Made by a program: the position numbers and the translations under genes. From contig CAYSHH010000001.1 of assembly GCA_964430945.1 (NCBI GenBank), forward strand, positions 6,473 through 70,472: a DNA stretch of 64,000 bases, written 5' to 3'. This DNA comes from an uncultured Candidatus Saccharibacteria bacterium (GTDB lineage Bacteria > Patescibacteriota > UBA1384 > JAMDBS01 > CAYSHH01). Position 1 is the stretch's first letter; each line of letters opens with the position of its first letter. Shown here in pieces: positions 1,632 through 58,515 of this stretch. The notes under the pieces were generated by a model. It made no database searches. It was given only the letters and a program-made list of their open reading frames with translations, and was not told the DNA's origin.

Positions 1632-1644
1632 ATCACAAAATAAC

Positions 1645-3657
1645 TTATTGCTTAATAATAATATAACTAAAACTCATATTCTCACCTGCATTTGAAGAAG
1701 AAACAGTAAAACTTGTATTATCTACAATCGCACTTACCCAATATGATCCTTGTGGCTGACTAGTCGGGGTAATTAACACCAAGTCCCCAGTCTCAATATA
1801 AATATTAGATACAGTAATACTACCAACCGCCCAAGTCGCCCCAGTATCAGCACCCGTCCATCTGTTATTCCCATAAACTGATGCATTCAATTTAATCATG
1901 TTGTCAGTGTCTAATGTCGTACTAGCGGAAGCGTCAAAAACTAATTTAGTTGGATCAGTAATATCCCCCTTATAAGCCCTTAGTGACCCTCCATTTTGAA
2001 CATAGAGCTCTCCAGTAATGTTTTTTATATATATATTATTACCGATATATGTATCATTATTTCCTGCCCCACCATGTCCGATAAAAATATCACCCTGGAA
2101 TGTTTCACCAGCAGCCGCATCGTACCTACCGATGGATATATCTCCGCCACCAGTAGCACCTTGATTAACGATATCGCCAATATATACATTATCTGAGGCA
2201 CTAGCCGCTCTAATACGTATATTATCTGTTACACCTGCCACAACGCTAGCTTCGAAATTTGCATTTTGGACAGTCACTGTATCAGTGATACCTCCTTTTG
2301 TAAACAACAAATTTGCATCCGTTGGTCCAATCCCTATCCAATGTGCAGAATCCACATAAACATTATTTGATATTCTCATACCTAAAGAATCAACATACAT
2401 AGCATCTGCTCCATTAACATTCATATCATACGAACCTCCAGCGGGAATATTTACATCAACTCCAGTTGCTTCAACTGAAAAAATATCTACTTTTGTTCCT
2501 CCAACATCATAACCTAAACTAATTCGCTCAGTTGCACCAACTCCAAGACTAATATTACCGTCTGTATCAAATTCCCAATCACTACTACTAGTTTCGTATC
2601 CTATGAATGAATTACCGTCAAAAGTGACATAATGATCTGCTAATAAAAGATTTCCCGTCATTATCTCAACATTAGCTGTAGTATTATGAATTAAAAGTGC
2701 GTCTACACCGTCTACTGCCAAATCTAAATCTTGCCCAGCCCCTGCCTCAATGTAGGTTGCATTGGTTATACTTTGATCATTTAAATTTAAATTTACCGTG
2801 GCAATAGCTGCGCTTGGAACTATTTTCAACTGATTTGCATCAACCTCAAAAATATCGGAACCATTTATGCCAAATAAAATCGAATTTGAACCATAAGAAC
2901 TAACAGTGTTTACACCGAGAATATTATTATTATTAACATTTAATCCCACTCCTGAGCTAGGTAATATTTTTACAGCACTTGAGTTTATTTCTAAAATATT
3001 TGTTCCACCGATATCAAACTTTATACTATTACTCCCATATCCAGAAATTGTATTGATACTAGTTAAATTATGATTGTTTAAATTAATATTACTCGATAAG
3101 GTTGCTCCAGAAAAATCAATACCGCCAGACACGTTAAGGCCATCGTCAGCTTGCAAATAAGTTGCAGTTTTTATTGCCGACCCAATATTTATTGCTCCAG
3201 CCGAATCCAACACCAATATATCATCAGCCCCAGTACCAGCATTTTTACCATCTAGTTTCTTAGAATTAATCGAAAACGGCGATGCTCCAATTTGTGTTCG
3301 AGGACTCATTTCACTATCTGATCCAACTTTGATACCTAAATAGTACTCACTAGAATTAAAATCAAGAGTTATTGGATTGACATCTCCTAATATTACCGAA
3401 AAAATACCATTTTTGGTAGTCACACTTTGAGTTTCGGACCAAGCATTGTCAGATGCAGTTGAACTAGTATAAATACTAAATACTATGTTATAAGTCCCAT
3501 CCGACACAGTGTTTCCTGAACTATTGGTAAGTCTCCCTTGATAACTCAATTTCGAATCAGGCAAGGCATAAGCACTTTCCGAGTAACCAAAAAAAACTGT
3601 GAAAACAGTCAAAAACGCCAACATAACCAAAAATGATCCGAGGCCTTTCTCTTTCAA
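1645..3657 (-). CDS. Secreted repetitive surface protein (signal peptide, internal ~40-aa tandem repeats, beta-helix/adhesin-like)
   Basis: 670 aa. TTG start preceded by AAGGAGGGG. N-terminal signal peptide (..GYSESAYA|LPD). Repeats such as SGYGSNSIKFDIGGTNILEINSSAVKILPSS and SSYGSNSILFGINGSDIFEVDANQLKIVPSA; Asn/Gly/Ser-rich. Confidence 0.6.
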   Translation of the reverse strand: MKEKGLGSFLVMLAFLTVFTVFFGYSESAYALPDSKLSYQGRLTNSSGNTVSDGTYNIVFSIYTSSTASDNAWSETQSVTTKNGIFSVILGDVNPITLDFNSSEYYLGIKVGSDSEMSPRTQIGASPFSINSKKLDGKNAGTGADDILVLDSAGAINIGSAIKTATYLQADDGLNVSGGIDFSGATLSSNINLNNHNLTSINTISGYGSNSIKFDIGGTNILEINSSAVKILPSSGVGLNVNNNNILGVNTVSSYGSNSILFGINGSDIFEVDANQLKIVPSAAIATVNLNLNDQSITNATYIEAGAGQDLDLAVDGVDALLIHNTTANVEIMTGNLLLADHYVTFDGNSFIGYETSSSDWEFDTDGNISLGVGATERISLGYDVGGTKVDIFSVEATGVDVNIPAGGSYDMNVNGADAMYVDSLGMRISNNVYVDSAHWIGIGPTDANLLFTKGGITDTVTVQNANFEASVVAGVTDNIRIRAASASDNVYIGDIVNQGATGGGDISIGRYDAAAGETFQGDIFIGHGGAGNNDTYIGNNIYIKNITGELYVQNGGSLRAYKGDITDPTKLVFDASASTTLDTDNMIKLNASVYGNNRWTGADTGATWAVGSITVSNIYIETGDLVLITPTSQPQGSYWVSAIVDNTSFTVSSSNAGENMSFSYIIIKQ

Positions 3658-3705
3658 AACCCCTCCTTAAAAGTAGGTTTATTTATTACAAATTTTTATA
3701 AATAT

Positions 3706-3714
3706 ATTATATCA
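3706..3714 (-). promoter_or_regulatory. Extended -10 element (TGATATAAT) upstream of the surface-protein gene
   Basis: Minus-strand TGATATAAT about 40 nt upstream of the strong SD and TTG start at 3657. Confidence 0.3.
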
Positions 3715-3745
3715 AATATAGTCTATTTTCACCAAGTGTATCATT

Positions 3746-4000
3746 CTACCGAGAAGTTGGTTGATGATAATCATCAAGGCCAGTATTCCCCCAATTACCA
3801 AACTCAATTACACCCATAAGATATAAAAATCCTACAAGAATAACTCCGATCGCAATAAGTTTCCACATAGTGTAAGACCCCCCTCCACCAAGATGTTGCT
3901 CTGCCCAAACACTTTTACCGAAAGTTCGCACCAACGGCTCCGTATATTTCAATATTGCAAGCCCAATAACAAACATCGATAAAAATATAAGAAATTTCAT
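3746..4000 (-). CDS. Small membrane protein (2 TM), hypothetical
   Basis: 84 aa ORF with two hydrophobic helices and a GGGG linker. Confidence 0.4.
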   Translation of the reverse strand: MKFLIFLSMFVIGLAILKYTEPLVRTFGKSVWAEQHLGGGGSYTMWKLIAIGVILVGFLYLMGVIEFGNWGNTGLDDYHQPTSR

Positions 4001-4012
4001 AAGTCTATCCTC

Positions 4013-4501
4013 CTATTTAAATATTATCACTAATCCAACCGCTAAAACAACAAGCTGGACTATTACACCCCAGTACCAATATTTTTTATCTAATCTATAA
4101 TGAATCTTTTTATGAAAATTAATTAGCGGTGTTACTAGAGGAATTTTTCTTGTACTATCCAATCCCAATTTACCCCCAGAAAAACTAATTTGGAATATCT
4201 TATCTAAAAAATCTACCATGAAAGTTGCCATACCCCCCCAAATAACATTCACTTTCCCAGTATATCGATATGCAACATAAATTAAAATTAATCCAATGAA
4301 AATATCACTTCCGACTAAACACCAGTCCCAGAAATCAAATACGATTCCTTTTTCAGGATTTCCATGTCTTACGCCACTATCATAATGAGGAAGCATATCT
4401 AAAATATAATGACTTGCTACAGACAGAACTACTACCAAAAAAGTACCATCAAGTACATCTCCAATAGCTGATCCAACTGCAATATGTGGTGTTATGAGCA
4501 T
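4013..4501 (-). CDS. Integral membrane protein, hypothetical (possible membrane-bound hydrolase-like)
   Basis: 162 aa with 4-5 hydrophobic segments and conserved His/Asp residues (HIAVGSAIGD, HYILDMLPHYD). Function not established. Confidence 0.4.
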   Translation of the reverse strand: MLITPHIAVGSAIGDVLDGTFLVVVLSVASHYILDMLPHYDSGVRHGNPEKGIVFDFWDWCLVGSDIFIGLILIYVAYRYTGKVNVIWGGMATFMVDFLDKIFQISFSGGKLGLDSTRKIPLVTPLINFHKKIHYRLDKKYWYWGVIVQLVVLAVGLVIIFK

Positions 4502-4533
4502 AAAACGTCCAATATCTAATTTAATAAATTATA

Positions 4534-5424
4534 TCAAAATAAACTATTTTGTTTTATCTGTTTATTGTATTTATTATTAATAATATTTGCATCAATTTGA
4601 ACAATATGAGAAATCCAAGGGTGCAAATCAATAACAAATTGGCTATTTGATGCTTCGACGACCAAGAAGCTCCCAATCATTGCAATTCCACTACCAGAAA
4701 TATAGTTATTTTTGACAATATCTGGGTCTCTCAAAACATTATTTTCTAAATAATAGTTGTCAAATACCTCAATTTTATTATTAATATCTAAATCAAATTC
4801 CTTCGATATCTCATTTTTCATGTCATTAAGTTTTTCTTTTGCTAATTTGGAATCATAATTATTGATAACCAATTGAATCTTTTTATTTCTACTTACGACT
4901 TCTGGCACAGATAAAAATTTGTGTGTATACTCTTCTATCTCTCTTGCGTCATAGGCATTGTCGCATGTCTTAATTATTATTGCACACCTAGCACCTTGTT
5001 CCAACAACCTCCGACGAATTCTTGGTGCATAAGCGATACCAACTTTGTTCACACCATATCCGAAATTAGCTAAATATACACTATGGGGTTTATTGTTTCT
5101 TTTCTGCTGTTTTAAAGATATATAATCAGCATTATAAAATGCTGGATTAAAACCCTGTTTTCTTTTGCACTTATCACACAATGTATATTTGGGGTGAAAA
5201 ATTTCACTTTTTTCAGGACAAGGATAAAAACCATCAATCGTCATGTCATATCCTCCAATACAATACTTTTTACTAGTTTTTCTAATAGTAAATTTTTGAT
5301 TTCTAATCGAAAAATGATATCTTTTCATATCTCCAAAAATCATATCCAAAACTAAAAATGGTCCTTCTTTTTTATGAAAACCATATCCAGAAAATAAATA
5401 TTTTTTCTCAAAATTAATATTCAT
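4534..5424 (-). CDS. Hypothetical protein with N-terminal Cys-rich zinc-ribbon-like segment and GIY-YIG-like motif
   Basis: 296 aa. CPEKSEIFHPKYTLCDKCKRK, followed by SVYLANFGYGVNKVGIAYAPRIRRRLLEQ, which resembles a GIY...YIG...R...E nuclease core. Assignment tentative. Confidence 0.4.
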   Translation of the reverse strand: MNINFEKKYLFSGYGFHKKEGPFLVLDMIFGDMKRYHFSIRNQKFTIRKTSKKYCIGGYDMTIDGFYPCPEKSEIFHPKYTLCDKCKRKQGFNPAFYNADYISLKQQKRNNKPHSVYLANFGYGVNKVGIAYAPRIRRRLLEQGARCAIIIKTCDNAYDAREIEEYTHKFLSVPEVVSRNKKIQLVINNYDSKLAKEKLNDMKNEISKEFDLDINNKIEVFDNYYLENNVLRDPDIVKNNYISGSGIAMIGSFLVVEASNSQFVIDLHPWISHIVQIDANIINNKYNKQIKQNSLF

Positions 5425-5464
5425 AATACAAATAATCTATAAGTGTATTGTAAGTTAAATATCT

Positions 5465-5496
5465 CAAACAAACAAAATGGCTCCTTTATAGGAGCC
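5465..5496 (-). terminator. Rho-independent terminator after HAD nucleotidase gene
   Basis: GGCTCC-TATAAA-GGAGCC hairpin (5479..5496) followed on the minus strand by ATTTTGTTTGTTTG. Confidence 0.5.
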
Positions 5497-5502
5497 AATA
5501 TT

Positions 5503-6099
5503 TCATAAAAGAATTTTTAACATTGGGATTAAATAATCCCAATTGTCAAACTTAAATACACAATCTTGCTTCAAATCGTAATTATATCCCCTCAGAAACA
5601 CTATCCTTCTCCATTTGGGAACATATTGACCAATAATATTTCTAGGAACATCATCTATAAGTAAATCACCCTCGAATAATGTCTTGTCGCTCATAAATAA
5701 AATATTATCCATTAGTTCTGGAAAATATTTATTAATCAGATATATTTTATCAGCTACATTTGTCTGTGATCTAGACATTGGATTTGTGACAAAGTATATC
5801 TTGGCACCTAATTTATAAAGGAGTTTTATAGTTTTAACTGCACCAGAAATAGGAGCCATTTCCCTTGCAAATCCATCCGCATAATATATATTGTCCAAAA
5901 TATCCCAAAAATATTTAGGAAAATTCTCCCTCAAAGGAAATTTTTTTATATCATACAACTGCATCCTTTTTAGAATATCAAACGTTTGATAAAAAATATC
6001 AAGCGTCAATCTATCAAAATCAAAAACAGTATTATCAAGATCTATTCCGATAATCATTCCTTTGATCATCGATAAAAAATTCTTATTCATATTACTCAC
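5503..6099 (-). CDS. HAD-superfamily hydrolase, 5'(3')-deoxyribonucleotidase-like
   Basis: 198 aa. N-terminal HAD motif I GIDLDNTVFDFD and a downstream LIDDVPRN motif. Confidence 0.5.
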   Translation of the reverse strand: MSNMNKNFLSMIKGMIIGIDLDNTVFDFDRLTLDIFYQTFDILKRMQLYDIKKFPLRENFPKYFWDILDNIYYADGFAREMAPISGAVKTIKLLYKLGAKIYFVTNPMSRSQTNVADKIYLINKYFPELMDNILFMSDKTLFEGDLLIDDVPRNIIGQYVPKWRRIVFLRGYNYDLKQDCVFKFDNWDYLIPMLKILL

Positions 6100-6144
6100 C
6101 CCGTATTTTTAATAAAACAAATTAGCCTTAAGGTAACAGAATAC

Positions 6145-6187
6145 TCAAAATAAAAAAAGCTTCAAGCAAATAATATTGCGTGAAGCT
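6145..6187 (-). terminator. Rho-independent terminator after 139-aa gene
   Basis: AGCTTCA...TGAAGCT stem (6158..6187) followed on the minus strand by TTTTTTTATTTTG. Confidence 0.5.
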
Positions 6188-6207
6188 CGAATTCAAAGTT
6201 TCCTTCA

Positions 6208-6627
6208 TTAACTGCGGATGATTATTACATCCCTGTTATTTATCTGGATTTTGCCTTCATCTAATACTACATCATCAACCTCACAGATATTCTTACCCCA
6301 AGGCTGATTTCTCACATTATTTACAAGTTTATCCTTAGCCTCCTGGTCTTTGCCGTTCATGATCATAACTGGAAAAATATCAACCAGAGAGATCTCAATA
6401 AGCTCATTTTTTGAGTACATGTGCCAGACACAATAAAAATAATTTCTGTACTCGCCAGTTGCGCCAGTGTCTTCATCAAATTCATTTCGCTTTGTCAAAA
6501 CTGCAAAATGATTATCATCGACATAAAACAATGCGATCGCAGACTCGTGAAGCTCATGGTCCCAAGTATAGTTGCGCCATTCTCTATCGATGTGTTCAAA
6601 TATCATTCGATAATTATCAACACACAC
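6208..6627 (-). CDS. Hypothetical protein
   Basis: 139 aa ORF, no recognisable motif; has its own terminator. Confidence 0.4.
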   Translation of the reverse strand: MCVDNYRMIFEHIDREWRNYTWDHELHESAIALFYVDDNHFAVLTKRNEFDEDTGATGEYRNYFYCVWHMYSKNELIEISLVDIFPVMIMNGKDQEAKDKLVNNVRNQPWGKNICEVDDVVLDEGKIQINNRDVIIIRS

Positions 6628-6813: not shown

Positions 6814-6889
6814 TGGTGGACCCGACAGGACTCGAACCTGCCACCTCCACAGTGCAAATGTGGCGCTCTACCAGATGAGCTACGGGCCC
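6814..6889 (-). tRNA. tRNA-Ala (anticodon UGC), CCA encoded
   Basis: Reverse complement GGGCCCGTAGCTCATCTGGTAGAGCGCCACATTTGCACTGTGGAGGTGGCAGGTTCGAGTCCTGTCGGGTCCACCA. Cloverleaf with G3:U70 Ala identity pair and anticodon loop TT-TGC-AC. Confidence 0.9.
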
Positions 6890-6905
6890 TCGCATAATTA
6901 TTAAC

Positions 6906-6981
6906 TGGTGCGCATGGGAGGAATTGAACCTCCGACCTCGTCATTATCAGTGACGCGCTCTAACCCCTGAGCTACATGCGC
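6906..6981 (-). tRNA. tRNA-Ile (anticodon GAU), CCA encoded
   Basis: Reverse complement GCGCATGTAGCTCAGGGGTTAGAGCGCGTCACTGATAATGACGAGGTCGGAGGTTCAATTCCTCCCATGCGCACCA. Anticodon loop CT-GAT-AA. 16 nt upstream of tRNA-Ala, as in rrn spacers. Confidence 0.9.
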
Positions 6982-7034
6982 AAGAATTCATTTTAGTAAA
7001 ATAATAATAACAGAAGTACCTAAGAGTTTCAAGA

Positions 7035-9602
7035 TTAAATATTATTCTTGTCAATTTTTATTGTCTCACCCTTTTTTACTTCGCCCGATATCATTTCCTT
7101 GGCAACAAGATTCTCCACTTTTTCTTGAATCAGCCTTCTTAGTGGCCTTGCTCCAAACAGGGGATCATATCCCTCTTCTGCTAATTTGTTTATTGCCCCA
7201 TCAGAAATCTCAAGTCTAATATTTTTCTCAGCCAAATCGTCATGAAGACTTTTTATCATAAGTTTTACAATTTGAATAATTTCCTGGATATCAAGTGGTT
7301 TATAGCACACAACTTTATCAAATCTGTTGATAAATTCCGGTCGAAAAATGCCTTGCGAAAGTAAATAATCAACAATTACCTTTCCTAAAGCATTGGCTGA
7401 TATATTACCTTCCAAATACTGTCTGATCTTTTCACTTCCGGCATTTGAAGTACAAATAATTATTGTGCTCGTAAAATCAATAGTTTTTCCAGCAGCATCA
7501 GTAAGTCTTCCCTCGTCCAAAACTTGCAATAACAAATTTAAAATATTTGGGTGTGCTTTTTCGATCTCATCAAAAAGTATCAATGTATATGGATTATTTT
7601 TTACGCCTTGTGTAAGTCTGCCTGGAACGTATTCTCTTCCGCTTTTTGTTCCTATCAAACGATCAATAGTATTAACTTCCTGAAATTCACTCATATCAAA
7701 TCTGATCATATTCTTTTCTGAACCGTAGTACGCTTCGGCCAAAGCACGAGCAGTTTCAGTTTTTCCGACTCCAGTAGGACCAATAAATAAAAAACTTCCG
7801 ATTGGTCTTTTTTTACCAGCAATACCAGCTCTAGCTCTTCTCAAAGCATCAGCAACTGCATCGATTGCTTCTCTTTGACCAATAACCCTTTTATGTAAAA
7901 TATTTTCCAAATTAAGCAATCTCTCCTTCTCCTCTTCTTCAACTTTTCCAACAGGCATTTTTATTTTGCGACTCATAAAATCGTTGATATAATCTACATC
8001 TACAATCTTTTCATTACTTTTCTGAGCATTTATTCCAACTTCACTTAGGAGGTCAACCGCTTTTTGCGGAAATGACTCATCATGAATATATCTCGACGCA
8101 AGTTCAATCAACGTCTTTACTGCCTGATATTTAAAAACAATTCCATGTTTTATTTCTATAAAAGATATAAGATGTTCAATACTTGGGATAACTTCTTCTT
8201 TACTCATCTCCTTTACTTCAATTTTATTAAACAACGTTTCTAGGCTAGTATTCGCCTGCATTTTTCCTTTGAAACTATCATATGAAATACTAGCAATAAC
8301 ATTGATTTCACCAGATTCTAGATAAGGCACTAAAAACTCAGCAGCATTAACTGTTCCCATCTCTCCCAGATAATTTCCTATCAAATGATCTATTTCTTTT
8401 ACAAAAAGAATTATATTTCCGGCATAAGTTGTTTCATTGAATACTGCCAAAAACCTAGCTTCAAGCTCGCTTTTTGAATTTACACCAGCCAAGATTTTAT
8501 TAATATCCAATTGGAATAAGTGTTTGTAGTTCAAACTTGGATATGATTTCCCTCTTCCAATTTTTTGTGCAAGTGAATTTACTAAGGTTGTTTTTCCAAC
8601 ACCCGGATCCCCAATAAGAAGGATATTATTTCTACCTGATTTTGCTAAATCGTCTTCAATAGTTTTAATTATCTCTTGCCTTGTTTGAGACTGATATTCT
8701 AGTTTGGCATCTATAAGATATTGTGAGATATCAGTGCAATACATATTGAGATATGGTGTATATCCCGAAGCCCAATCTTGACCTATACCTGCAGGATAAT
8801 AATCCTTTTGCCAATAATATTTCTTCTTACTTTCCAACAATGTTCTTTCAGTCCAAGACAAAATATTTTTTAAATCATTTTCTTTTATATCAATGTCATT
8901 GAGTACATGCGAAAAAATCTGCAAATTCTTGTAAAGTGACATGACAAGATCTGAAAAATTGATATTTGTGTGATTGCTTGCCAATGCTTCCTTGTCACAC
9001 TGATTCAAGAAATTTTTATTTTGTATATCGAGCTGATCTTGAGCGTTTGCAGACAAACTTTTCATTTCATCTATTAGACTCTTTCTAGTCGCATCGTCAA
9101 CGATAAAACCAGATCTGATAGCAAATACTCTACCAATATCCGTTTTATCCAAAGCTACCAAGATAGCCATAAGATTAATTTCTCGAACATTGTTTTTTCT
9201 AGAAATATCTATAGCTTCACCTAAAATTTCAATATTTTTTTCATTAAAATAATCAAATAAATTCTCACTTGTTTTTTTTTGAATATTTAAATTGTTTTGT
9301 ATATGAGTACCAAATTTTACATATATGTTGATGAGAAAAATAAAAATTCCAAAACCCAATACAATATAAAGCAAAGATCTTATTTCTGGATTTACTAAAT
9401 TGCTATTCCTAGCCAAAATTAAATAAGCAAAGGATGATATCCCAGCAAAATATATTAGATAGCCAAAAAAACTAACCCAAAAACTTCCAAAAGTTTTTCG
9501 TAGTCTGTAAGCTTCATAAGATTTTGAACTCAAAAAATCTTTAATCATATTATTAACCCTCGATAAATCAGATAAATAATTAAAAATGGTAAACTCAACC
9601 AT
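7035..9602 (-). CDS. Membrane-anchored ClpA/ClpB/ClpC-family AAA+ ATPase (two AAA domains; atypical N-terminus with 2 TM helices; divergent D1)
   Basis: 855 aa. The N-terminal 100 aa contain two hydrophobic helices and no Clp_N domain. D1 Walker A is LLIGDPGVGKTTL, but the Walker B region reads ILFVKEIDHL instead of ILFIDEIH. D2 is canonical (VIGQREAI..., FLFIGPTGVGKTETARALA, LILFDEIEKAHPNI, sensor-2 GARPLRR). Confidence 0.8.
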   Translation of the reverse strand: MVEFTIFNYLSDLSRVNNMIKDFLSSKSYEAYRLRKTFGSFWVSFFGYLIYFAGISSFAYLILARNSNLVNPEIRSLLYIVLGFGIFIFLINIYVKFGTHIQNNLNIQKKTSENLFDYFNEKNIEILGEAIDISRKNNVREINLMAILVALDKTDIGRVFAIRSGFIVDDATRKSLIDEMKSLSANAQDQLDIQNKNFLNQCDKEALASNHTNINFSDLVMSLYKNLQIFSHVLNDIDIKENDLKNILSWTERTLLESKKKYYWQKDYYPAGIGQDWASGYTPYLNMYCTDISQYLIDAKLEYQSQTRQEIIKTIEDDLAKSGRNNILLIGDPGVGKTTLVNSLAQKIGRGKSYPSLNYKHLFQLDINKILAGVNSKSELEARFLAVFNETTYAGNIILFVKEIDHLIGNYLGEMGTVNAAEFLVPYLESGEINVIASISYDSFKGKMQANTSLETLFNKIEVKEMSKEEVIPSIEHLISFIEIKHGIVFKYQAVKTLIELASRYIHDESFPQKAVDLLSEVGINAQKSNEKIVDVDYINDFMSRKIKMPVGKVEEEEKERLLNLENILHKRVIGQREAIDAVADALRRARAGIAGKKRPIGSFLFIGPTGVGKTETARALAEAYYGSEKNMIRFDMSEFQEVNTIDRLIGTKSGREYVPGRLTQGVKNNPYTLILFDEIEKAHPNILNLLLQVLDEGRLTDAAGKTIDFTSTIIICTSNAGSEKIRQYLEGNISANALGKVIVDYLLSQGIFRPEFINRFDKVVCYKPLDIQEIIQIVKLMIKSLHDDLAEKNIRLEISDGAINKLAEEGYDPLFGARPLRRLIQEKVENLVAKEMISGEVKKGETIKIDKNNI

Positions 9603-9907
9603 GTAATAAAAATAATAATGAAAGCAATAATAGATAAAATTATTATTATATACCCAGCCATGATAGTAAGTGATCTTATCAAAACCCCCATAAATCTAGA
9701 TATTATATTTATTGCAAACATATTCAATCGTTCCTGAAGTGATGGATTCACTATCTTAGAAATATCTTTTTTCCAAGGCAGAAATAAAGTTCGCATCAAA
9801 AAATCAATAGAAAATTGATGATACAAATACGCAATTGTTTTTTGAAATATAAATATAATTTTTTTTGGCGCCTCAATAAATTGCCAACCAAAATAACTTC
9901 CTATCAT
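9545..9907 (-). CDS. Small polytopic membrane protein, hypothetical
   Basis: 120 aa, 3 predicted TM segments. Overlaps the start of the Clp-like ATPase by about 58 nt. First ORF downstream of the 16S trailer. Confidence 0.4.
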   Translation of the reverse strand: MIGSYFGWQFIEAPKKIIFIFQKTIAYLYHQFSIDFLMRTLFLPWKKDISKIVNPSLQERLNMFAINIISRFMGVLIRSLTIMAGYIIIILSIIAFIIIFITWLSLPFLIIYLIYRGLII

Positions 9908-9996
9908 AGCACTTAGTACACCTCCTTAATTATAATATGTCTACTTAATCATATCAGAACAATAAAAAAAATCCCATACAAGATGAGATTTTTTTA

Positions 9997-10023
9997 TATC
10001 AGTAACTTTGCGGTTGTAAGAAT
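9997..10023 (-). other. 16S rRNA trailer half of leader-trailer processing stem (pairs with 11684..11710)
   Basis: Plus 9997..10023 is the near-perfect reverse complement of plus 11684..11710: 27 bp with 1 G:U and 1 mismatch. The pair brackets the 16S gene like an RNase III processing stem. Confidence 0.6.
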
Positions 10024-10097
10024 GTTCAGAAATAAATTTCTGAAATCGATCTAGTAAGTTTCAAATATAAATATTCAATTCTTACTGATTCCTTTAG

Positions 10098-11596
<1,499 letters not shown>

Positions 11597-51712: not shown

Positions 51713-52330
51713 TCACCTTGTCAATAAATATAAACCACCAATTTCCCAAATTGCTGACACAAAAAGAATTACAACAATGAGGGGATAAAGTTTCAATGCA
51801 TCTATCCATGCATACTTAAATGCTTTCCATCTGTTTTTGGTCTTATATTTCTCTGGCCAAAATAAGCTTACGCCGATATTTGTACCTGCTGCAGCTGACA
51901 ATATATAAGCACCAAATTCGAGCAGTATTGTTCCAAATAACAATAAATAATACCAGCAATTACCGCCAATATCTCCATACAAAAGACCAATAAAAAATGC
52001 TCTTTCGACCATCACTAAAAGTGGTAATGGGAAAAAAACTCCTACAAGTGTAGTCGACAAAAAAGCCCCCAAAAAACTATTGTAACCAGTAGTATAGAAA
52101 ATAGCGTATATGATATTTTTACTTTGTATTGCCTGTACGATATTTTGTATTGCATCTGTTTTTTCAATCTGTAACATCAAATTTACTTTTAGAGAAGAAA
52201 CAATGTCAAGATCACTTTGAGACATAAAAAAACCAGCGCCAAGCGTGATTAGAGTTATCACAAAAACAATTATAACAATCGGTTTTATTTTTTTTAGAAC
52301 CTCTAGAGATTGCGAGAATATTTTAATCAT
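51713..52330 (-). CDS. Polytopic membrane protein, SpoIIM/DUF95-like (tentative)
   Basis: 5-6 TM helices with a GTILLEFGAYILSAAAG motif. ORF track extends to 52417 into iscU; start trimmed to MIKIFSQ. Confidence 0.4.
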   Translation of the reverse strand: MIKIFSQSLEVLKKIKPIVIIVFVITLITLGAGFFMSQSDLDIVSSLKVNLMLQIEKTDAIQNIVQAIQSKNIIYAIFYTTGYNSFLGAFLSTTLVGVFFPLPLLVMVERAFFIGLLYGDIGGNCWYYLLLFGTILLEFGAYILSAAAGTNIGVSLFWPEKYKTKNRWKAFKYAWIDALKLYPLIVVILFVSAIWEIGGLYLLTR

Positions 52331-52733
52331 TCTTTTTTTTATATTTCTCAATTGCCTTTTTAATACCCTGTTCAGCCAATAATGAACAATGATATTTAAC
52401 CTTTGGCAACCCACCAAGTTTCTTTACAATTTCCTGATTGCTAATTTTTAAGGCATTATCAAGCGATTTACCCTTTATTATTTCAGTAGCGATCGATGAA
52501 GTTGCAATAGCCGCTCCACAACCTAGAGTGAGTACTTTTACATCCTTAATATATTCTTCTTCTTTTCCACCCTTTTTACGTTTATCTATCTTAAGATACA
52601 CTTTCATTACATCACCACACTTAGGATTTCCAACCATAGCTACGCTATCAGCATCTTTAATTTTTCCTATATTCTTAGGATTGATAAAATACTGCATTAC
52701 TTTTTGCGAGTATAAATCAAAATTATCTTTCAT
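52323..52733 (-). CDS. iscU: Fe-S cluster assembly scaffold, IscU/NifU N-terminal domain type
   Basis: 136 aa with three conserved Cys (GNPKCGDVMKV, LTLGCGAAIA, YHCSLLAEQ). Confidence 0.85.
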   Translation of the reverse strand: MKDNFDLYSQKVMQYFINPKNIGKIKDADSVAMVGNPKCGDVMKVYLKIDKRKKGGKEEEYIKDVKVLTLGCGAAIATSSIATEIIKGKSLDNALKISNQEIVKKLGGLPKVKYHCSLLAEQGIKKAIEKYKKKND

Positions 52734-52746
52734 ATATATCTCCTAA

Positions 52747-53487
52747 CTAATAATTTTTTAAGACATATTCTCTAGCCTTGTCCTCAAGATTATCGTTTAT
52801 TTTTTTAAGTTTAATCGGTTTATTATACTTAACCTCAAGCGCTTTTTCAAGAAGCCAATCGGTGACTTGTGGATTTTTAGGCAAAAAAGGTCCATGTAGA
52901 TACGTTCCTATAAAATTTTTTGAGATTATACCTTCAGTCTTATCTACACCATTATTACCACCACCTCTGATAATTTTTCCCATAGCTTCAGATTTATTTG
53001 CTAAAAATGTCCTTCCACTATGATTTTCAAACCCGGCAAGTTTCTCACTACCAAATATCTTACTCTCTACAAATACATTTCCAACCATGCGCTCTTTGCT
53101 GCCAAATGTATTCGCATCAAATATGCCTATGCCTCTTATCTTGCTTCCTTCGCAAGTTTGAAAAAAATTACCCAAAAGCTGGTATCCACCACATATCGTA
53201 AGCATAGGTTTACCAGTATCATAAAATTTCTTAATATCTACCGATTTTATCTGTAAATCTCTGGCCACTACTTTCTGTTCTTTGTCCTGTCCACCACCAA
53301 AAAAAGCTAGGTCAATTTTTTTATAGTCAAATTTATCTCCTATTTCAATATTTTCAATCTCAACATCAATATTTCTCATCTTTGCTCGATAAGTCATCGC
53401 TACAATATTTCCTCTATCACCATAAAGATTCATTGTCTTCGAATAAAGCCACCCAATTGTAAGTTTTTTATTTTGTATCATATGCAA
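52747..53487 (-). CDS. gatD: Lipid II isoglutaminyl synthase glutaminase subunit (CobQ/CobB-type GATase)
   Basis: 246 aa. Type-3 GATase with catalytic Cys (ICGGYQLLG) and His; immediately downstream of the murT-like gene. Confidence 0.7.
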   Translation of the reverse strand: MHMIQNKKLTIGWLYSKTMNLYGDRGNIVAMTYRAKMRNIDVEIENIEIGDKFDYKKIDLAFFGGGQDKEQKVVARDLQIKSVDIKKFYDTGKPMLTICGGYQLLGNFFQTCEGSKIRGIGIFDANTFGSKERMVGNVFVESKIFGSEKLAGFENHSGRTFLANKSEAMGKIIRGGGNNGVDKTEGIISKNFIGTYLHGPFLPKNPQVTDWLLEKALEVKYNKPIKLKKINDNLEDKAREYVLKNY

Positions 53488-53502: not shown

Positions 53503-54882
53503 TTAAACCTTTTCTACTAATCCCTTCTTCTCTAATATCTTTCTAATTTCAAGCATAGCAGTATAAGTTGGCAGTATATAAATACACTCATCGTCGCCAA
53601 TCTTTTTTCCACCAGCAATTTCAATCTCTTTCCAATAATTATTACTTACTTTTATATATTTTTCGTCCACACCAGCATATTTTAAACGCAGTGCCAAATC
53701 GTATTTTCTTGTACCCATACTTACTATTTTCTTCATATCACCCAAGGACTCAAAGTCAACATCATATATCCACGATACATCTGTACCGTCAGCAATCTTA
53801 TCATTGAGCGCACAGATAACATACTTATCTTTTGCTTGATTCAGTATTTCAATTGCAGTATTCGCCCCAGTGGGATTTTTTACAAGAATTATTCTAAATT
53901 TATTATTTTTGTATACAAATTCTTCCATTCTGCCAAATGCAGGCTTAAAACTGACAAAAGATTGTGCGATCGAATCTTCGGTAAATTCCCACTCTTTGGC
54001 AACAATAAATGCAGCCAGTGCATTATAAACATTATATGACCCCAATATCTTTATATTTATCTTCACAATTGATTTATTGTCATAAAGCTTAAACTCAATA
54101 CTGTCCTTGCAATGCACAATTTCGTCTGCCCACATATCAAGCTTTGGTCTTGAGCTATTACATCCCACGCAGTAGTAATCTCCCAGATGAGAGAACATTC
54201 TTGTCTTATAATTTAGTATTTGTCTACAATTAAAACATCTTACCGAATCAGATGCATGTTCAATCTCATCCTCATTTATCTTTTTATGAGTTCGAATACC
54301 ATAAAATATTTTATCTCCCCGAAAAGAATTAGCGATTGAAGCCAATGACGGGTCGTCAGCATTCACCACAAGCAATGTCTTCGCTGATAATTTTTGAAGA
54401 GTATCTTGCCACTTTCTAGCAATAGTATCCAATTCACCATATCTATCTAGCTGATCACGAAATATATTTCCCAATATCACCACATCCGGTTTTATCACGC
54501 TGGCAATATTAGCAAATTCTGCCTCGTCTACCTCGAACACTCCATAATTTAACTGAATATTGCCAACATAATCTGATTTCTCAATAAGAGCCGAGGCTAT
54601 ACCACGAGCCAAGTTTGAGCCACTTGAGTTTCTAACATAGTTTTCACAGTTTTCCTTGAGGATACCCGCTACCATCTCTGATGTTGTCGTCTTGCCATTA
54701 GTAGCAGTTATAATAACTTTTTTCTCAATGCCGCGCGACAAATCACGTATTAGATCAGGATAAATTTTGAGTGCGATAAGACCGGGGGCAGACTGTCCCG
54801 AACCACGTCCAAAAGCTTGGGTCAAAAACCCAATAAACTTTCCGACTAATATTGCCACACATAATCTTATTGACTTAATCAT
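53503..54882 (-). CDS. murT: Lipid II isoglutaminyl synthase, Mur-ligase-family subunit
   Basis: 459 aa. Mur ligase P-loop (TATNGKTTTSEMVAGIL), the MurT-specific Cys4 ribbon CFNCRQ...CVGCNS, and a C-terminal DUF1727-like domain. Confidence 0.8.
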   Translation of the reverse strand: MIKSIRLCVAILVGKFIGFLTQAFGRGSGQSAPGLIALKIYPDLIRDLSRGIEKKVIITATNGKTTTSEMVAGILKENCENYVRNSSGSNLARGIASALIEKSDYVGNIQLNYGVFEVDEAEFANIASVIKPDVVILGNIFRDQLDRYGELDTIARKWQDTLQKLSAKTLLVVNADDPSLASIANSFRGDKIFYGIRTHKKINEDEIEHASDSVRCFNCRQILNYKTRMFSHLGDYYCVGCNSSRPKLDMWADEIVHCKDSIEFKLYDNKSIVKINIKILGSYNVYNALAAFIVAKEWEFTEDSIAQSFVSFKPAFGRMEEFVYKNNKFRIILVKNPTGANTAIEILNQAKDKYVICALNDKIADGTDVSWIYDVDFESLGDMKKIVSMGTRKYDLALRLKYAGVDEKYIKVSNNYWKEIEIAGGKKIGDDECIYILPTYTAMLEIRKILEKKGLVEKV

Positions 54883-54944: not shown

Positions 54945-55139
54945 ATGGGAAAACATGAAGAAATTTTTGCTTTCATGATTTTGATCATCTTTAGAATAGC
55001 AGGATGTTTTGTTGTCTGGTATATAAAACCAGGTGACTACAAACTTCTTGGAGGAGTGATTGTCTTGTTAGTTTTACTAACATTCTTCGACTGGCATCAA
55101 AACCAGTGGGCAAAAAAGGAATACAAAACAAAAGGATAG
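54945..55139 (+). CDS. Small membrane protein (2 TM), hypothetical
   Basis: 64 aa, preceded by AAAGGAG. One of only two plus-strand ORFs in a long minus-strand run. Confidence 0.3.
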   Translation: MGKHEEIFAFMILIIFRIAGCFVVWYIKPGDYKLLGGVIVLLVLLTFFDWHQNQWAKKEYKTKG

Positions 55140-55186
55140 ATTTTTTCTATTTTTTCCGATCAAAATTTAACTTGGGAGGTGAAAAA

Positions 55187-55360
55187 ATGAAATTTTCAAA
55201 ATGGATCTTCGCATTTTTAATTGCGATCATCTATACAATCGGCATTGGTAAAATAGTTACCGATTTAACCATAGCCGGTAAACCAGTATTGGCATATGCA
55301 TTTTTTGGAATTGCAAATATAATAATGGGGGGGGTTGCAGCAATACATGCCCGAGACTAA
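55187..55360 (+). CDS. Small membrane protein (2 TM), hypothetical
   Basis: 57 aa (MKFSKW...), preceded by GGGAGGTGAAAAA-ATG; followed by a terminator. ORF track extends it upstream to 55106. Confidence 0.35.
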   Translation: MKFSKWIFAFLIAIIYTIGIGKIVTDLTIAGKPVLAYAFFGIANIIMGGVAAIHARD

Positions 55361-55372
55361 CAGACTTATAAC

Positions 55373-55397
55373 CCGCAGCACTCGCTGCGGTTTTTTT
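55373..55397 (+). terminator. Rho-independent terminator CCGCAGC-actc-GCTGCGG + T7
   Basis: Between the plus-strand small ORFs and the iscS stop. Confidence 0.6.
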
Positions 55398-55406
55398 ATC
55401 TAAATT

Positions 55407-56588
55407 TTATTTCCCAAACGGACTCATCATTCTTAATTTACTAACAATTTTTTTTAATACTCTGATTGTATAATCTATATCTTCTTTCGTTGTTGTATCT
55501 CCCAAAGTAAATCTGATCGATCCATGTGCATCCTCATGCTTAAGTCCAATTGCCAAAAGTACATGGGATGGATCCAAACTTCCTGACGTACAAGCCGAAC
55601 CAGAACTAGCTGCGATTCCTGCCCCATCAAGATGCAAAAGTATTGCCTCACCTTCAATATATTTAAAACTAATATTTACATTGTTTGGATTTCTCTTGAC
55701 TCTGTCTCCATTTAAAAACGTATTCGGGATTTCTTTTAAGATTTTTTCAATAAAGTAATCTCTCAATTCTTTGATTATTTGATTTTTTCTTTTTGATTTT
55801 TCAATTAGCTCTATCGCTTTTCCTATCCCCACAATTCCTGGGGTATTATATGTCCCAGCCCTCAAATTATTTTCTTGAGCGCCACCAATATTTTCTCGAT
55901 GTAGTTTTACTCCTTTTTTTACATAAAGCAAACCTACGCCTTTAGGCCCCCCAAACTTATGAGCTGACACACTCATCATGTCCACACCTAGCTTTTTCAC
56001 ATTACAATTTTGATATCCGACAGCCTGCACAGCATCGGTATGAAAATACAACTTATCGTATTTTCCAATCAATTTTCCAATTTCCGCAATTGGCTGAACG
56101 GTACCGATCTCATTATTTACATACATTATCGTAACCAGTACTGTATTTTTTTTAATAGCTTTCTCTATATCACTAACACAAATGATTCCCTTATTATCAG
56201 GTTTCACATAAGTTAACTCTATCAAACCTCGCTTCTCTAAATCCTTACACGTATCAAGTACTGCGTGATGTTCAAAAGCTGAGGTGATAATATGTGGTTT
56301 CGATTTCAAATCTAAAAATTCCGATTTTATAATATTGTTTATCAACCCTTTGATTGCCAGATTATCAGACTCCGTACCACCAGATGTAAAAATTATTTCT
56401 CTAGCGTCACAACCAAAATACTTAGCAATCTCGTCTCTCGCTTCTTCTATTGCCTTTTTTGCGTCTCTCCCAAAACCATGAACACTCGACGCATTACCAT
56501 ATTTTTCTGAAAAATATGGTAACATCACCTCAAGAACTTCTTTTTTTACCGGACCAGTTGCCGCATAATCAAGATATATCTTTTTCAT
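55407..56588 (-). CDS. iscS: Cysteine desulfurase (class V aminotransferase, IscS/NifS type)
   Basis: 393 aa. PLP lysine motif SAHKFGGPKGVGLLYV; active-site Cys in SSGSACTSG. Confidence 0.9.
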   Translation of the reverse strand: MKKIYLDYAATGPVKKEVLEVMLPYFSEKYGNASSVHGFGRDAKKAIEEARDEIAKYFGCDAREIIFTSGGTESDNLAIKGLINNIIKSEFLDLKSKPHIITSAFEHHAVLDTCKDLEKRGLIELTYVKPDNKGIICVSDIEKAIKKNTVLVTIMYVNNEIGTVQPIAEIGKLIGKYDKLYFHTDAVQAVGYQNCNVKKLGVDMMSVSAHKFGGPKGVGLLYVKKGVKLHRENIGGAQENNLRAGTYNTPGIVGIGKAIELIEKSKRKNQIIKELRDYFIEKILKEIPNTFLNGDRVKRNPNNVNISFKYIEGEAILLHLDGAGIAASSGSACTSGSLDPSHVLLAIGLKHEDAHGSIRFTLGDTTTKEDIDYTIRVLKKIVSKLRMMSPFGK

Positions 56589-56597
56589 AACAATTTC

Positions 56598-56837
56598 TTA
56601 TTTTGTTTTTTTATCTTTCTGCAAATTAAGTTCATCCACCAAACTTCTCACACAACCACGGCATTCACCTGTAAGACACTCGTATTCTTCCTGTGGGACC
56701 AATACAGCAACCGGTTTGGAATAGCGCATCACCTGATAAGTATTTCCTTTTTCTACGTCTTTAATAATTTTCGAAACACCTGATTGTAATTTATTGATTG
56801 TTACGCTCTTTCGTGTTGTTTTTTTCATAATATTCAC
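56598..56837 (-). CDS. Phd/YefM-fold small protein with C-terminal Cx4Cx2C motif
   Basis: 79 aa. N-terminal KSVTINKLQSGVSKIIKDVEKGNTYQVMRYSKPVAVLVPQEEY matches the Phd/YefM antitoxin fold, followed by ECLTGECRGCV. 9 nt upstream of iscS; no toxin gene adjacent. Confidence 0.55.
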   Translation of the reverse strand: MNIMKKTTRKSVTINKLQSGVSKIIKDVEKGNTYQVMRYSKPVAVLVPQEEYECLTGECRGCVRSLVDELNLQKDKKTK

Positions 56838-56883
56838 TTTAACTTGTTGATCATATGTAATATAACATTATATATAATATAAA

Positions 56884-58515
56884 TCAAACTTTTTTAGATG
56901 CTCGAACTAACTCCATAAATAAAGGATGTGGTTTTGTTGGCCAAGACCTAAACTCTGGATGAAATTGCACTCCTACAAAAAATGGATGGTCATTTTTATT
57001 TAGTTCTACTATTTCTACGATATGATTGTCTGGACTAGTACCTGCAACTACCAATCCGGCTTTCTCAAGCTTTTGTCGGAATTTATTATTGAATTCAAAT
57101 CTATGACGATGTCGCTCTCCGATCAAATTCCTCTTATAAGCACGATACGATATTGATCCTTTTTTTATCTTTGCTGAATACTCTCCTAAACGCATCGTGC
57201 CACCATAGTCACGATCTAGCATTTTCTTTTCTTGTTCTGGCATTATATGTATTACCTGATTTTTGCTATTCTTTACAATCTCTTCAGTACAGGCACCTTT
57301 AATCTTTGCCACATTTCTAGCAAATTCTATTGTCGCAAGTTGCATGCCATAACAAAGTCCAAGATATGGTATTTTATTAATACGTGCATATTTAATTGCC
57401 GATATTATACCTTCAATTCCTCTAGATCCAAACCCACCAGGCACGACAACACCATCGTATTGACTAAGCTTTTTAAGATTTTTTTTGTCATCTTCAAATT
57501 CTTGAGCATTTATCCAACTCAAATCTATATTTACACCATTCGCCCAACCAGCATGCTTTATTGCTTCAATAACAGAAATATAAACATCAGACAACATAAA
57601 ATCACCCGTCTGAAAATATTTTCCAACAAGCGCTATTTTGATGTTATCTTTGGCTTTTTTCATCTGTTGCACCAACTTACGCCATTTTGCACCATCTTTA
57701 AGTTTGGGCGCCAACCCAAATTTGGACAGTATTTTTTCTGCTATACATTGTTGATCCAAGATATATGGTATTTCATAAATACTATCGACGTCTGGGTCAG
57801 AAAATATATGCTCAGTTGACACATTGCAAAATAACGAAATTCTTTCTTTTCTCTTCTCATCCATTTCAATCTCAGCTCGCCCAATAATAAAATCTGGTTG
57901 TATTCCCATTGAATTAAGTGCTTGTACTGATTGCTGAACAGGTTTTGTTTTCATCTCACCAAGCTTCGCGGGTATTGGCAAATATGCCAAGTGGATTTGC
58001 AAAATATCATCTGGGTGTTTCATTTTCATCAATCTTGCTGCCTCAAAAAATAATGCGTTTTGATATTCTCCTACAGTTCCGCCAAGCTCAACCAATACAA
58101 TTTCTGCTTTGTTACTAGTACCAGCAAGTTCAATCCGTCTTATAATTTCATTTGACACGTGTGGAATCGCTTCTACATCTTCACCGTCATACCCAAACGC
58201 ACGTTCTTTTTGCAATACTTCCCAATAAACTTGCCCTGTTGTTATATAATTTGTTTTATTGAGTTCTTGTCCCAAAAATCTCTCATAGTTGCCAACATCT
58301 TGATCGGTTTCCATACCATCATTTGTCACAAATACTTCCCCATGCTCGGTGGGGCGTATAGTTCCAGCATCAAGATTGAGATACATGTCTATCTTTACAG
58401 CTGTTACCTTGTATCCACGCGATTTCAATAAATTTCCAATCGATGCAGTAATTATCCCTTTACCAAGTCCAGACAACACCCCCCCAGAAATAAAAATAAA
58501 TTTAGGTCTTTTCAT
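56884..58515 (-). CDS. pyrG: CTP synthase
   Basis: 543 aa. N-terminal synthetase domain (FISGGVLSGLGKGI) and C-terminal GATase (GLCYGMQ). Confidence 0.95.
   Translation of the reverse strand: MKRPKFIFISGGVLSGLGKGIITASIGNLLKSRGYKVTAVKIDMYLNLDAGTIRPTEHGEVFVTNDGMETDQDVGNYERFLGQELNKTNYITTGQVYWEVLQKERAFGYDGEDVEAIPHVSNEIIRRIELAGTSNKAEIVLVELGGTVGEYQNALFFEAARLMKMKHPDDILQIHLAYLPIPAKLGEMKTKPVQQSVQALNSMGIQPDFIIGRAEIEMDEKRKERISLFCNVSTEHIFSDPDVDSIYEIPYILDQQCIAEKILSKFGLAPKLKDGAKWRKLVQQMKKAKDNIKIALVGKYFQTGDFMLSDVYISVIEAIKHAGWANGVNIDLSWINAQEFEDDKKNLKKLSQYDGVVVPGGFGSRGIEGIISAIKYARINKIPYLGLCYGMQLATIEFARNVAKIKGACTEEIVKNSKNQVIHIMPEQEKKMLDRDYGGTMRLGEYSAKIKKGSISYRAYKRNLIGERHRHRFEFNNKFRQKLEKAGLVVAGTSPDNHIVEIVELNKNDHPFFVGVQFHPEFRSWPTKPHPLFMELVRASKKV

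Follow-up and report, generated by a model that had tools for sequence, protein, structure and literature searches.

What is the role of a Phd/YefM-type antitoxin protein that is encoded without a toxin, immediately upstream of a gene for cysteine desulfurase? The question is raised by a gene located in 64,000 nucleotides (nt) of contig CAYSHH010000001.1 (assembly GCA_964430945.1) of an uncultured Candidatus Saccharibacteria bacterium; this whole stretch is referred to below as the window. The initial annotation described the product as a protein of 79 amino acids (aa) with a Phd/YefM fold and a Cx4Cx2C motif, and proposed that it either replaces IscR as a sensor of iron–sulfur (Fe-S) cluster status or represents an orphan antitoxin domesticated as a regulator. 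The analysis presented here favors the following answer: a toxin-less member of the Phd/YefM family was probably recruited as a dedicated autorepressor of the minimal Fe-S operon (regulator–nifS–nifU) in Patescibacteria, also known as the candidate phyla radiation (CPR), with an inter-chain cysteine site acting as the sensor. The parts of this proposal differ in strength, since the window protein is very probably a repressor of its operon, while the assumption that the sensed signal is a bound Fe-S cluster is plausible but tentative.

The gene itself is located as follows.

56598..56828, minus strand: coding sequence of the Phd/YefM-like CxxC protein, 76 aa, with start codon ATG at 56828 and stop codon TAA at 56600..56598; an in-frame GTG at 56837 extends it to 79 aa.

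The open reading frame (ORF) 56598..56837 on the minus strand is genuine, and its longest reading, from GTG 56837, gives the product of 79 aa reported initially. The product from ATG 56828 (MKKTTRK..., complete sequence MKKTTRKSVTINKLQSGVSKIIKDVEKGNTYQVMRYSKPVAVLVPQEEYECLTGECRGCVRSLVDELNLQKDKKTK) is identical to database protein P0001, which was called independently, and agrees with the N-termini of all orthologs; the start codon is therefore likely ATG 56828, and the protein comprises 76 rather than 79 aa.

The fold of the protein is that of Phd/YefM antitoxins. Taken alone, the window protein matches Pfam family PF02604 (PhdYeFM_antitox) with E=4.6e-6 and 26.8 bits, below the gathering score of 29.8, and TIGR01552 with 19.7 bits against a cut-off of 20.8. 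The profile of the whole family recovered Phd of phage P1 from the PDB with E=9e-5. The AlphaFold model of the window protein, built on a 31-sequence alignment, has a mean predicted local distance difference test (pLDDT) score of 87 and the topology β(6-10)-α-α-β(30-35)-β(38-43)-α(46-53)-α(57-75); the top PDB structures found for it by Foldseek are VapB46-N, RelB2, Phd (including operator-bound Phd) and YefM, all of which are Phd/YefM-type antitoxin domains. Since the profile match to Phd, the model topology and the Foldseek matches agree, the N-terminal fold proposed initially is settled. Conservation and model quality are both highest in the DNA-binding N-terminal half of the protein. At the C-terminus, a tail of ~20 residues, helical in the model, opens with an invariant CxxC and has no similarity to known toxin-neutralising tails; past CxxC-[LVI] the tail is short and weakly conserved. 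No Rrf2 match to the window protein was found in Pfam or NCBIfam, and a match of a RING-like zinc-finger family of Pfam across the cysteine motif (E=0.028) was dismissed as noise.

Toxin genes were not found in the vicinity. No toxin-like ORF is present beside the gene in the window, where its neighbors are pyrG, located directly upstream, and nifS. Searches by tblastn with manually entered sequences of YoeB, Doc, RelE, IscR and CymR covered the 64-kb window and ~0.4 Mb of related loci, which is a fraction of any genome; in these stretches, neither relatives of the toxins YoeB, Doc and RelE nor relatives of the Rrf2 proteins IscR and CymR were detected. The absence of a partner toxin, noted initially, is thus borne out by the pyrG and nifS flanks and by the searches.

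The gene downstream of the regulator is the following.

55407..56588, minus strand: nifS-type cysteine desulfurase, 393 aa, a class-V aminotransferase, located 9 nt past the stop codon of the Phd-like gene.

The distance of 9 nt agrees with the initial annotation, whereas the gene, named there iscS, is of the NifS type and belongs to a minimal system of two genes. Its product scores 516 bits with the NifS model TIGR03402 (cut-off 530.75) and 427 bits with the IscS models (cut-offs 548-643), with an Aminotran_5 match of 5.5e-84; it was called NifS-like and not IscS because its score is nearer to the cut-off of TIGR03402 than to those of the IscS models. The Phd-like gene and nifS are presumably co-transcribed.

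The same arrangement was found throughout the family, which comprises more than 200 proteins according to a profile search in 1.84 billion representative proteins and then in a collection of 5.8 billion proteins. The hosts of all named family hits belong to Patescibacteria/CPR, namely, to the Patescibacteria group, Berkelbacteria, "Saccharibacteria" and candidate division WS5, and the database label, where there is one, is the generic "Phd/YefM antitoxin" or type II antitoxin. A scan of metagenomes, for which the pattern was taken from a narrower alignment, the 31-sequence one being too diverse, yielded 80 loci; their neighboring genes were identified by tblastn with NifS and NifU of the window. 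The gene nifS is located immediately 3' of the regulator in 78 of the 80 loci, the other two being contigs that end just past the regulator gene, and nifU comes next wherever the contig is long enough, mostly immediately. The order regulator–nifS–nifU was likewise found in the genome loci L008-L012, and the association with nifS also on an 842-kb contig and in a WS5 genome. Genes for members with just 31-36% identity to the window protein precede nifS as well. Among all informative related loci (~90, with identities as low as 31%), nifS is invariably the downstream gene. In a few divergent loci, a small gene encoding a 23S_rRNA_IVP/bAvd-like or MazG-like protein is inserted between the regulator and nifS. 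Upstream neighbors vary across the loci and include pyrG, a gene of GT87 glycosyltransferase and others; accordingly, the linkage is with nifS. Of Fe-S assembly components, the gene tables of related loci list NifS and NifU alone, other parts of ISC or SUF systems being absent from the vicinity. The regulator gene is a stable part of a minimal nifS-nifU unit in CPR bacteria.

Two conserved boxes, overlapping the promoter, were found upstream of the regulator gene. In the window, the elements are arranged in the following order.

56882..56887, minus strand: -35-like hexamer TTGATT, overlapping the pyrG stop codon TGA at 56886..56884.
56872..56880, minus strand: box 1, ATATTATAT (family consensus ATGTTAYAT), in the promoter spacer.
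56860..56868, minus strand: box 2, ATGTTATAT, 12 nt downstream of box 1, containing the extended -10 element TGtTATATT.
56864..56859, minus strand: -10 element TATATT, inside the extended -10 of box 2.

The promoter and both boxes are compressed into 55 nt that separate the stop codon of pyrG from ATG 56828. For 68 non-redundant loci, the sequences preceding the regulator gene were aligned; nearly all of them contain a TTGACA-like hexamer, 1-2 nt, and ATGTTAYAT twice at a distance of exactly 12 nt (consensus ATGTTATATAnnATGTTATAT), the extended -10 element TGtTAYATT lying in the downstream copy. In 47 of 60 loci, 1-2 nt separate the end of the TTGACA-like hexamer from box 1. With the spacing of 12 nt, at least 15 of 18 positions match in 54 of the 68 loci, while any other spacing reaches this level in at most 27 loci. 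The boxes were also found in L001 and L006, where pyrG does not precede the regulator, and the promoter therefore belongs to the regulator–nifS unit.

The specificity of the box pair was evaluated with a weight matrix of 21 nt, for which 59 sites of other loci, and none of the window, served as the training set. The site 56880..56860 ranks first among ~128,000 positions of the window with 21.7 bits; the runner-up has 11.2 bits, and 20 shuffled versions of the window reached 17.5 at most. When the 68 loci (333 kb) were scanned in leave-one-out fashion, the top site of the whole locus lies no more than 160 nt upstream of the regulator in 61 of 68 cases; 59 sites of at least 14 bits lie inside this upstream zone and 3 elsewhere, one of the latter being an operator 186 nt upstream. 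A candidate for the palindromic operator that the initial annotation suggested looking for upstream of the phd–nifS unit is present at 56880..56860 in the form of paired near-palindromic boxes. Each has the form ATGT-W-AYAT, with the central base T or A depending on the clade, and such a symmetric near-palindrome would fit reading by a symmetric dimer. In one sub-clade, both boxes are jointly changed to GTTACCT, and its proteins carry VSRYSKPVAYL in place of VMRYSxPVAV: the changed boxes accompany 15 of 16 VSRYSKPVAYL proteins, compared with 2 of 39 VMRYS proteins. The explanation of the upstream motif as an extended -10 promoter alone was rejected as incomplete because of the copy 12 nt upstream in the spacer, the joint changes in the sub-clade and the near-uniqueness of the pair in 333 kb; box 1 sits in the spacer, a region not conserved in promoters. 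With the nifS(-nifU) synteny in ~90 loci and a promoter-overlapping, YefM-like box pair found almost only there, the initial view of an orphan antitoxin domesticated as a regulator at the usual place of IscR is well supported.

No second operator-like site was found by the matrix scan anywhere in the 64-kb window, and judging from this the window regulator seems to govern only itself and nifS. The scaffold gene is located separately, unlike in most related loci, where nifU directly follows nifS.

52323..52733, minus strand: nifU/IscU-type scaffold (NifU_N, 4.7e-42), 2.7 kb downstream, behind murT and gatD, without an operator-like site in the matrix scan.

Some clades possess an inverted partner downstream of box 2, in the forms GTTACCTTA-N4-TAAGGTAAC, GTTACCCTA-N4-TAGGGTAAC and GTTATACTA-N4-TAGTATAAC, which the window lacks; it was found upstream of the regulator in L062 and L063, at ~1085..1140 in L094 and at ~2885..2935 in L098, and its arms change compensatingly between clades. 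It was considered as an RNA hairpin, but a DNA palindrome appears more likely because the left arm is the -10 element itself and hence would lie upstream of the transcript start. Three divergent loci (L011, at ~5900..6005, and the equivalents in L021 and L060) contain a conserved hairpin leader of ~75 nt (GGAGCCGGGTAGT...ACTACCCGGGAG) between the operator and the start codon; it has no Rfam match, and an Rfam search of the window and these three long-leader loci revealed nothing relevant. This leader could be a second control element acting at the RNA level.

The family is characterized by the signature RYSxP together with E-C-[KR]-x-C, the local consensus being E-C-[K/R]-x-C-[L/V/I]. Across the 31-sequence alignment (25-68% identity), only R35, Y36, P39, C56 and C59 are invariant. 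The CxxC pair is present in 70 of 70 distinct proteins derived from the loci and in all 102 further database proteins; 179 of 200 distinct family sequences contain these two cysteines only. The pair marks the N-terminal end of a helix; its cysteines enclose a nearly invariant Lys/Arg and are preceded by a Glu. No conserved His occurs in the family, and the conserved metal-type ligands amount to two cysteines per chain; a tetrahedral site would therefore need several chains. The codons of the motif in the window are as follows.

56652..56678, minus strand: codons of C51-L-T-G-E-C56-R-G-C59, computed from ATG 56828; C56 and C59 form the family-wide CxxC, and C51 is specific to the clade of the window.

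The three cysteines noted initially are present, and ECLTGECRGC (C51, C56, C59) is kept in 14 of 14 close orthologs (51-80% identity), EYxCLTGECRGC being unchanged throughout these 14 relatives; Cx4CxxC is nevertheless an elaboration of the universal CxxC in the clade of the window and was found in 17 of 200 sequences. An IscR-like site of three Cys and one His within a single monomer can therefore not serve as the general mechanism, with 179 of 200 sequences carrying only CxxC. Additional cysteines were acquired beside the pair in several lineages of the 200 sequences, in the arrangements Cx4CxxC, CxxCx3CxC and CxxCxxC, and such clustering would be expected of a metal or cluster site.

The following mechanism is proposed. 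Dimers formed via the N-terminal Phd fold would bind the two ATGTWAYAT boxes 12 bp apart, one dimer per box, and the bound protein would block RNA polymerase because the boxes are placed in the spacer and over the extended -10 of a sigma-70-type promoter. A short C-terminal helix opening with E-C-[KR]-x-C would stand in for the toxin-binding tail. The sensor would be formed by four cysteines, either within a dimer or between dimers on adjacent boxes, that hold a labile Fe-S cluster or else a metal, with a third cysteine (C51) added beside the pair in the clade of the window. Phd dimers on adjacent operator sites are bridged by Doc; the inter-chain site may act as a co-repressor in the toxin's stead and couple its occupancy to cooperative binding of DNA. 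In Nbp35/Cfd1/ApbC, a labile [4Fe-4S] cluster is held between two subunits, each of which contributes one CxxC, and the zinc analogue of this arrangement is the Rad50 hook. Repression would be tighter when clusters are plentiful and relieved when they are scarce or oxidised. The Fe-S cluster is the favored ligand because the gene has a fixed place before those for Fe-S assembly and because extra cysteines arose repeatedly beside the pair. The most specific version, a Phd fold in which the toxin co-repressor is replaced by an inter-subunit Fe-S cluster (one CxxC per chain) bridging chains or adjacent dimers, so that occupancy by the cluster itself brings about the cooperative repression for which the toxin is responsible in the ancestral toxin–antitoxin modules, would constitute an undescribed class of regulator for the only Fe-S assembly system of CPR bacteria; this version is rather doubtful at present.

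A number of points weigh against the proposal. Cluster binding by the CxxC is purely inferred, zinc sites and thiol-disulfide switches are just as typical settings for a CxxC at the start of a helix, and the AlphaFold model is that of a monomer. The boxes could be bound by another regulator, for example, an Rrf2 or SufR protein encoded outside the searched stretches. Box 2 doubles as the extended -10, so that its conservation is partly that of the promoter; box 1 of the window, ATATTATAT, is a weaker copy; and approximately 7-9 of the 68 loci, for example, L013, L083, L091 and L102, have no clear box pair. The co-variation of protein and boxes may reflect a single lineage event. Finally, nifU of the window lies outside the unit and has no box, which leaves control of the scaffold unexplained there.

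Several rival explanations retain the autorepressor and differ in the function assigned to the cysteines. The CxxC could be a thiol switch, in which an oxidant or a persulfide of NifS produces a disulfide or polysulfide, intra- or inter-chain, and the altered affinity for DNA induces nifS(-nifU) for cluster repair, in a manner similar to Spx or to CstR/SqrR. The presence of just two conserved cysteines per chain at a helix N-terminus is in agreement with this possibility, as are the Lys/Arg between them and the preceding Glu, which favor a reactive thiolate; the synteny and the operator fit it equally. However, the cysteines added in several lineages, including the invariant C51 of the window, would more typically complete the coordination sphere of a metal, and for the many CPR bacteria that are anaerobic a signal of cluster status would seem more useful than one of peroxide. 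The thiol switch is regarded as unlikely, though it is the strongest of the alternatives. Less likely again is a structural role of the CxxC pairs as an inter-subunit zinc site similar to the Rad50 hook, which would do no more than stabilise the dimer or tetramer, with regulation, if there is any, exerted through binding of NifS or NifU to the tail as a toxin-like co-repressor. The zinc hook is a precedent for a site with two cysteines per chain that needs a partner chain. Moreover, repression of type II toxin–antitoxin operons is modulated by the downstream product, which attaches to the tail of the antitoxin (PMC1802561), and NifS is always encoded in that place; nevertheless, the tail past CxxC-[LVI] is short and poorly conserved and offers little surface for a partner.

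Two other explanations deny the protein its regulatory role at this operon. According to one of them, the Phd-fold protein is an accessory of NifS, acting as a sulfur acceptor or relay via the CxxC, and the boxes represent a promoter together with the site of another regulator. Small dedicated partners are common for cysteine desulfurases, and the coincidence of box 2 with the extended -10 agrees with such a role, which is nonetheless very improbable: box 1 is conserved in the spacer without a promoter role, the paired geometry of 12 bp is the known DNA-binding mode of the Phd/YefM family, the boxes co-vary with the β-strand motif of the protein, and the DNA-binding N-terminal half is its best-conserved and best-modelled part. 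According to the other, the protein is an ordinary antitoxin, as databases annotate the family, with the toxin encoded elsewhere or recently lost and with an accidental adjacency to nifS. The probability of this is negligible. The link with nifS persists across ~90 loci with proteins of 31-80% identity and varying upstream genes, and this synteny effectively refutes an accidental or recently orphaned antitoxin; in addition, no relative of YoeB, Doc or RelE was found by tblastn in the window or the loci, and the toxin-binding tail is replaced by the invariant CxxC helix.

The proposed autorepressor combines features of known systems. Similar to YefM, Phd and Axe (PF02604), it has an N-terminal β-α-α-β-β-α fold for DNA binding and dimerisation, and its gene is the first in the operon; it differs from them in that nifS is located downstream instead of a toxin gene, in the E-C-[KR]-x-C helix instead of a disordered toxin-binding tail, and in Pfam and TIGRFAM scores just under the curated cut-offs. 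The operator of E. coli yefM-yoeB consists of paired palindromes with TGTACA cores, 12 bp apart from centre to centre and positioned over the -10, an arrangement that recurs in many yefM-yoeB loci, and repression by YefM is enhanced by YoeB (PMC1802561). The predicted (pseudo)palindromic box pair of the present family, 12 bp apart over the -10, shares the geometry of this best-studied member, while the core of its boxes is TGTWAYA, unlike TGTACA of YefM.

IscR and SufR are transcription factors that sense Fe-S cluster status, according to a review of 2026, and holo-IscR represses the isc operon; Fe-S assembly systems include ISC, SUF, NIF, MIS and SMS (PMC13066941). By sequence, the genes putatively regulated here represent a minimal system of the NifS/NifU type (MIS/NIF-like), consisting of a class-V desulfurase and a U-type scaffold. 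As with IscR, a [2Fe-2S] sensor of the Rrf2 family, the regulator gene is the first one before the genes of cysteine desulfurase and scaffold, and the role proposed for it is that of a feedback autorepressor; unlike the winged helix of IscR, its fold is that of Phd, two conserved cysteines are present instead of Cx5Cx5Cx2H, and the cluster is only predicted. With SufR, the [4Fe-4S] repressor of suf operons, it shares the character of a dedicated (predicted) repressor encoded with Fe-S assembly genes, differing in fold and in that SufR serves the SUF system. The cysteine ligands of SufR lie within a single chain. The similarity to Nbp35/Cfd1/ApbC and the Rad50 hook, one CxxC per subunit, concerns the logic of the motif only, the proteins and their functions being unrelated. 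The literature searched contained nothing that links a Phd/YefM protein to the regulation of Fe-S assembly, which denotes absence there and is not proof of absence.

At least 200 proteins, known merely as "antitoxin", are thus tied to nifS-nifU across CPR bacteria and have a clear predicted operator. This corrects a systematic mis-annotation, by which toxin–antitoxin counts in CPR genomes are inflated, and provides a concrete and testable regulator, together with its candidate DNA site, for organisms without genetics. The family would also illustrate clearly how the DNA-binding module of an antitoxin can be domesticated for housekeeping control, and if the CxxC indeed holds a bridging cluster, it would represent a new and very small (~70 aa) design of Fe-S sensor.

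The region between nifS and nifU of the window contains the following features.

55373..55390, strand not assigned: GC-rich hairpin just 3' of the nifS stop codon, common to the convergent small ORFs, with a T-run on the plus strand only.
54945..55360, plus strand: two membrane-like ORFs, opposite in strand to nifS and nifU.
53503..54882: murT.
52747..53487: gatD-like amidotransferase gene.

The hairpin 55373..55390 is likely the 3' end of the phd–nifS unit in the window genome.

Genes for bAvd-like four-helix-bundle proteins (23S_rRNA_IVP) were found within the operon or close to it in several related loci: in L001 at 7539..7895, between nifS and nifU; in L093 at 291..644; in L094 at 1382..1735; and in L004 at 1413..1790. 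In L093-L095, the bAvd-like gene is located between the regulator and nifS. The differing insertion points suggest a mobile or frequently inserted gene. One family member, P0025 (218 aa), carries an extra C-terminal domain of ~140 aa, which by eye looks Nudix-like.

The rRNA genes of the window genome are unlinked, since no 23S rRNA gene was found in the 64-kb window and the stretch 267..6627 is filled by protein-coding ORFs. In the region 6814..11595 on the minus strand, the 16S rRNA gene (10098..11595) is split from the genes of tRNA-Ile and tRNA-Ala (6814..6981) by a gene encoding a ClpB/ClpC-like AAA+ protein of 855 aa (7035..9602).

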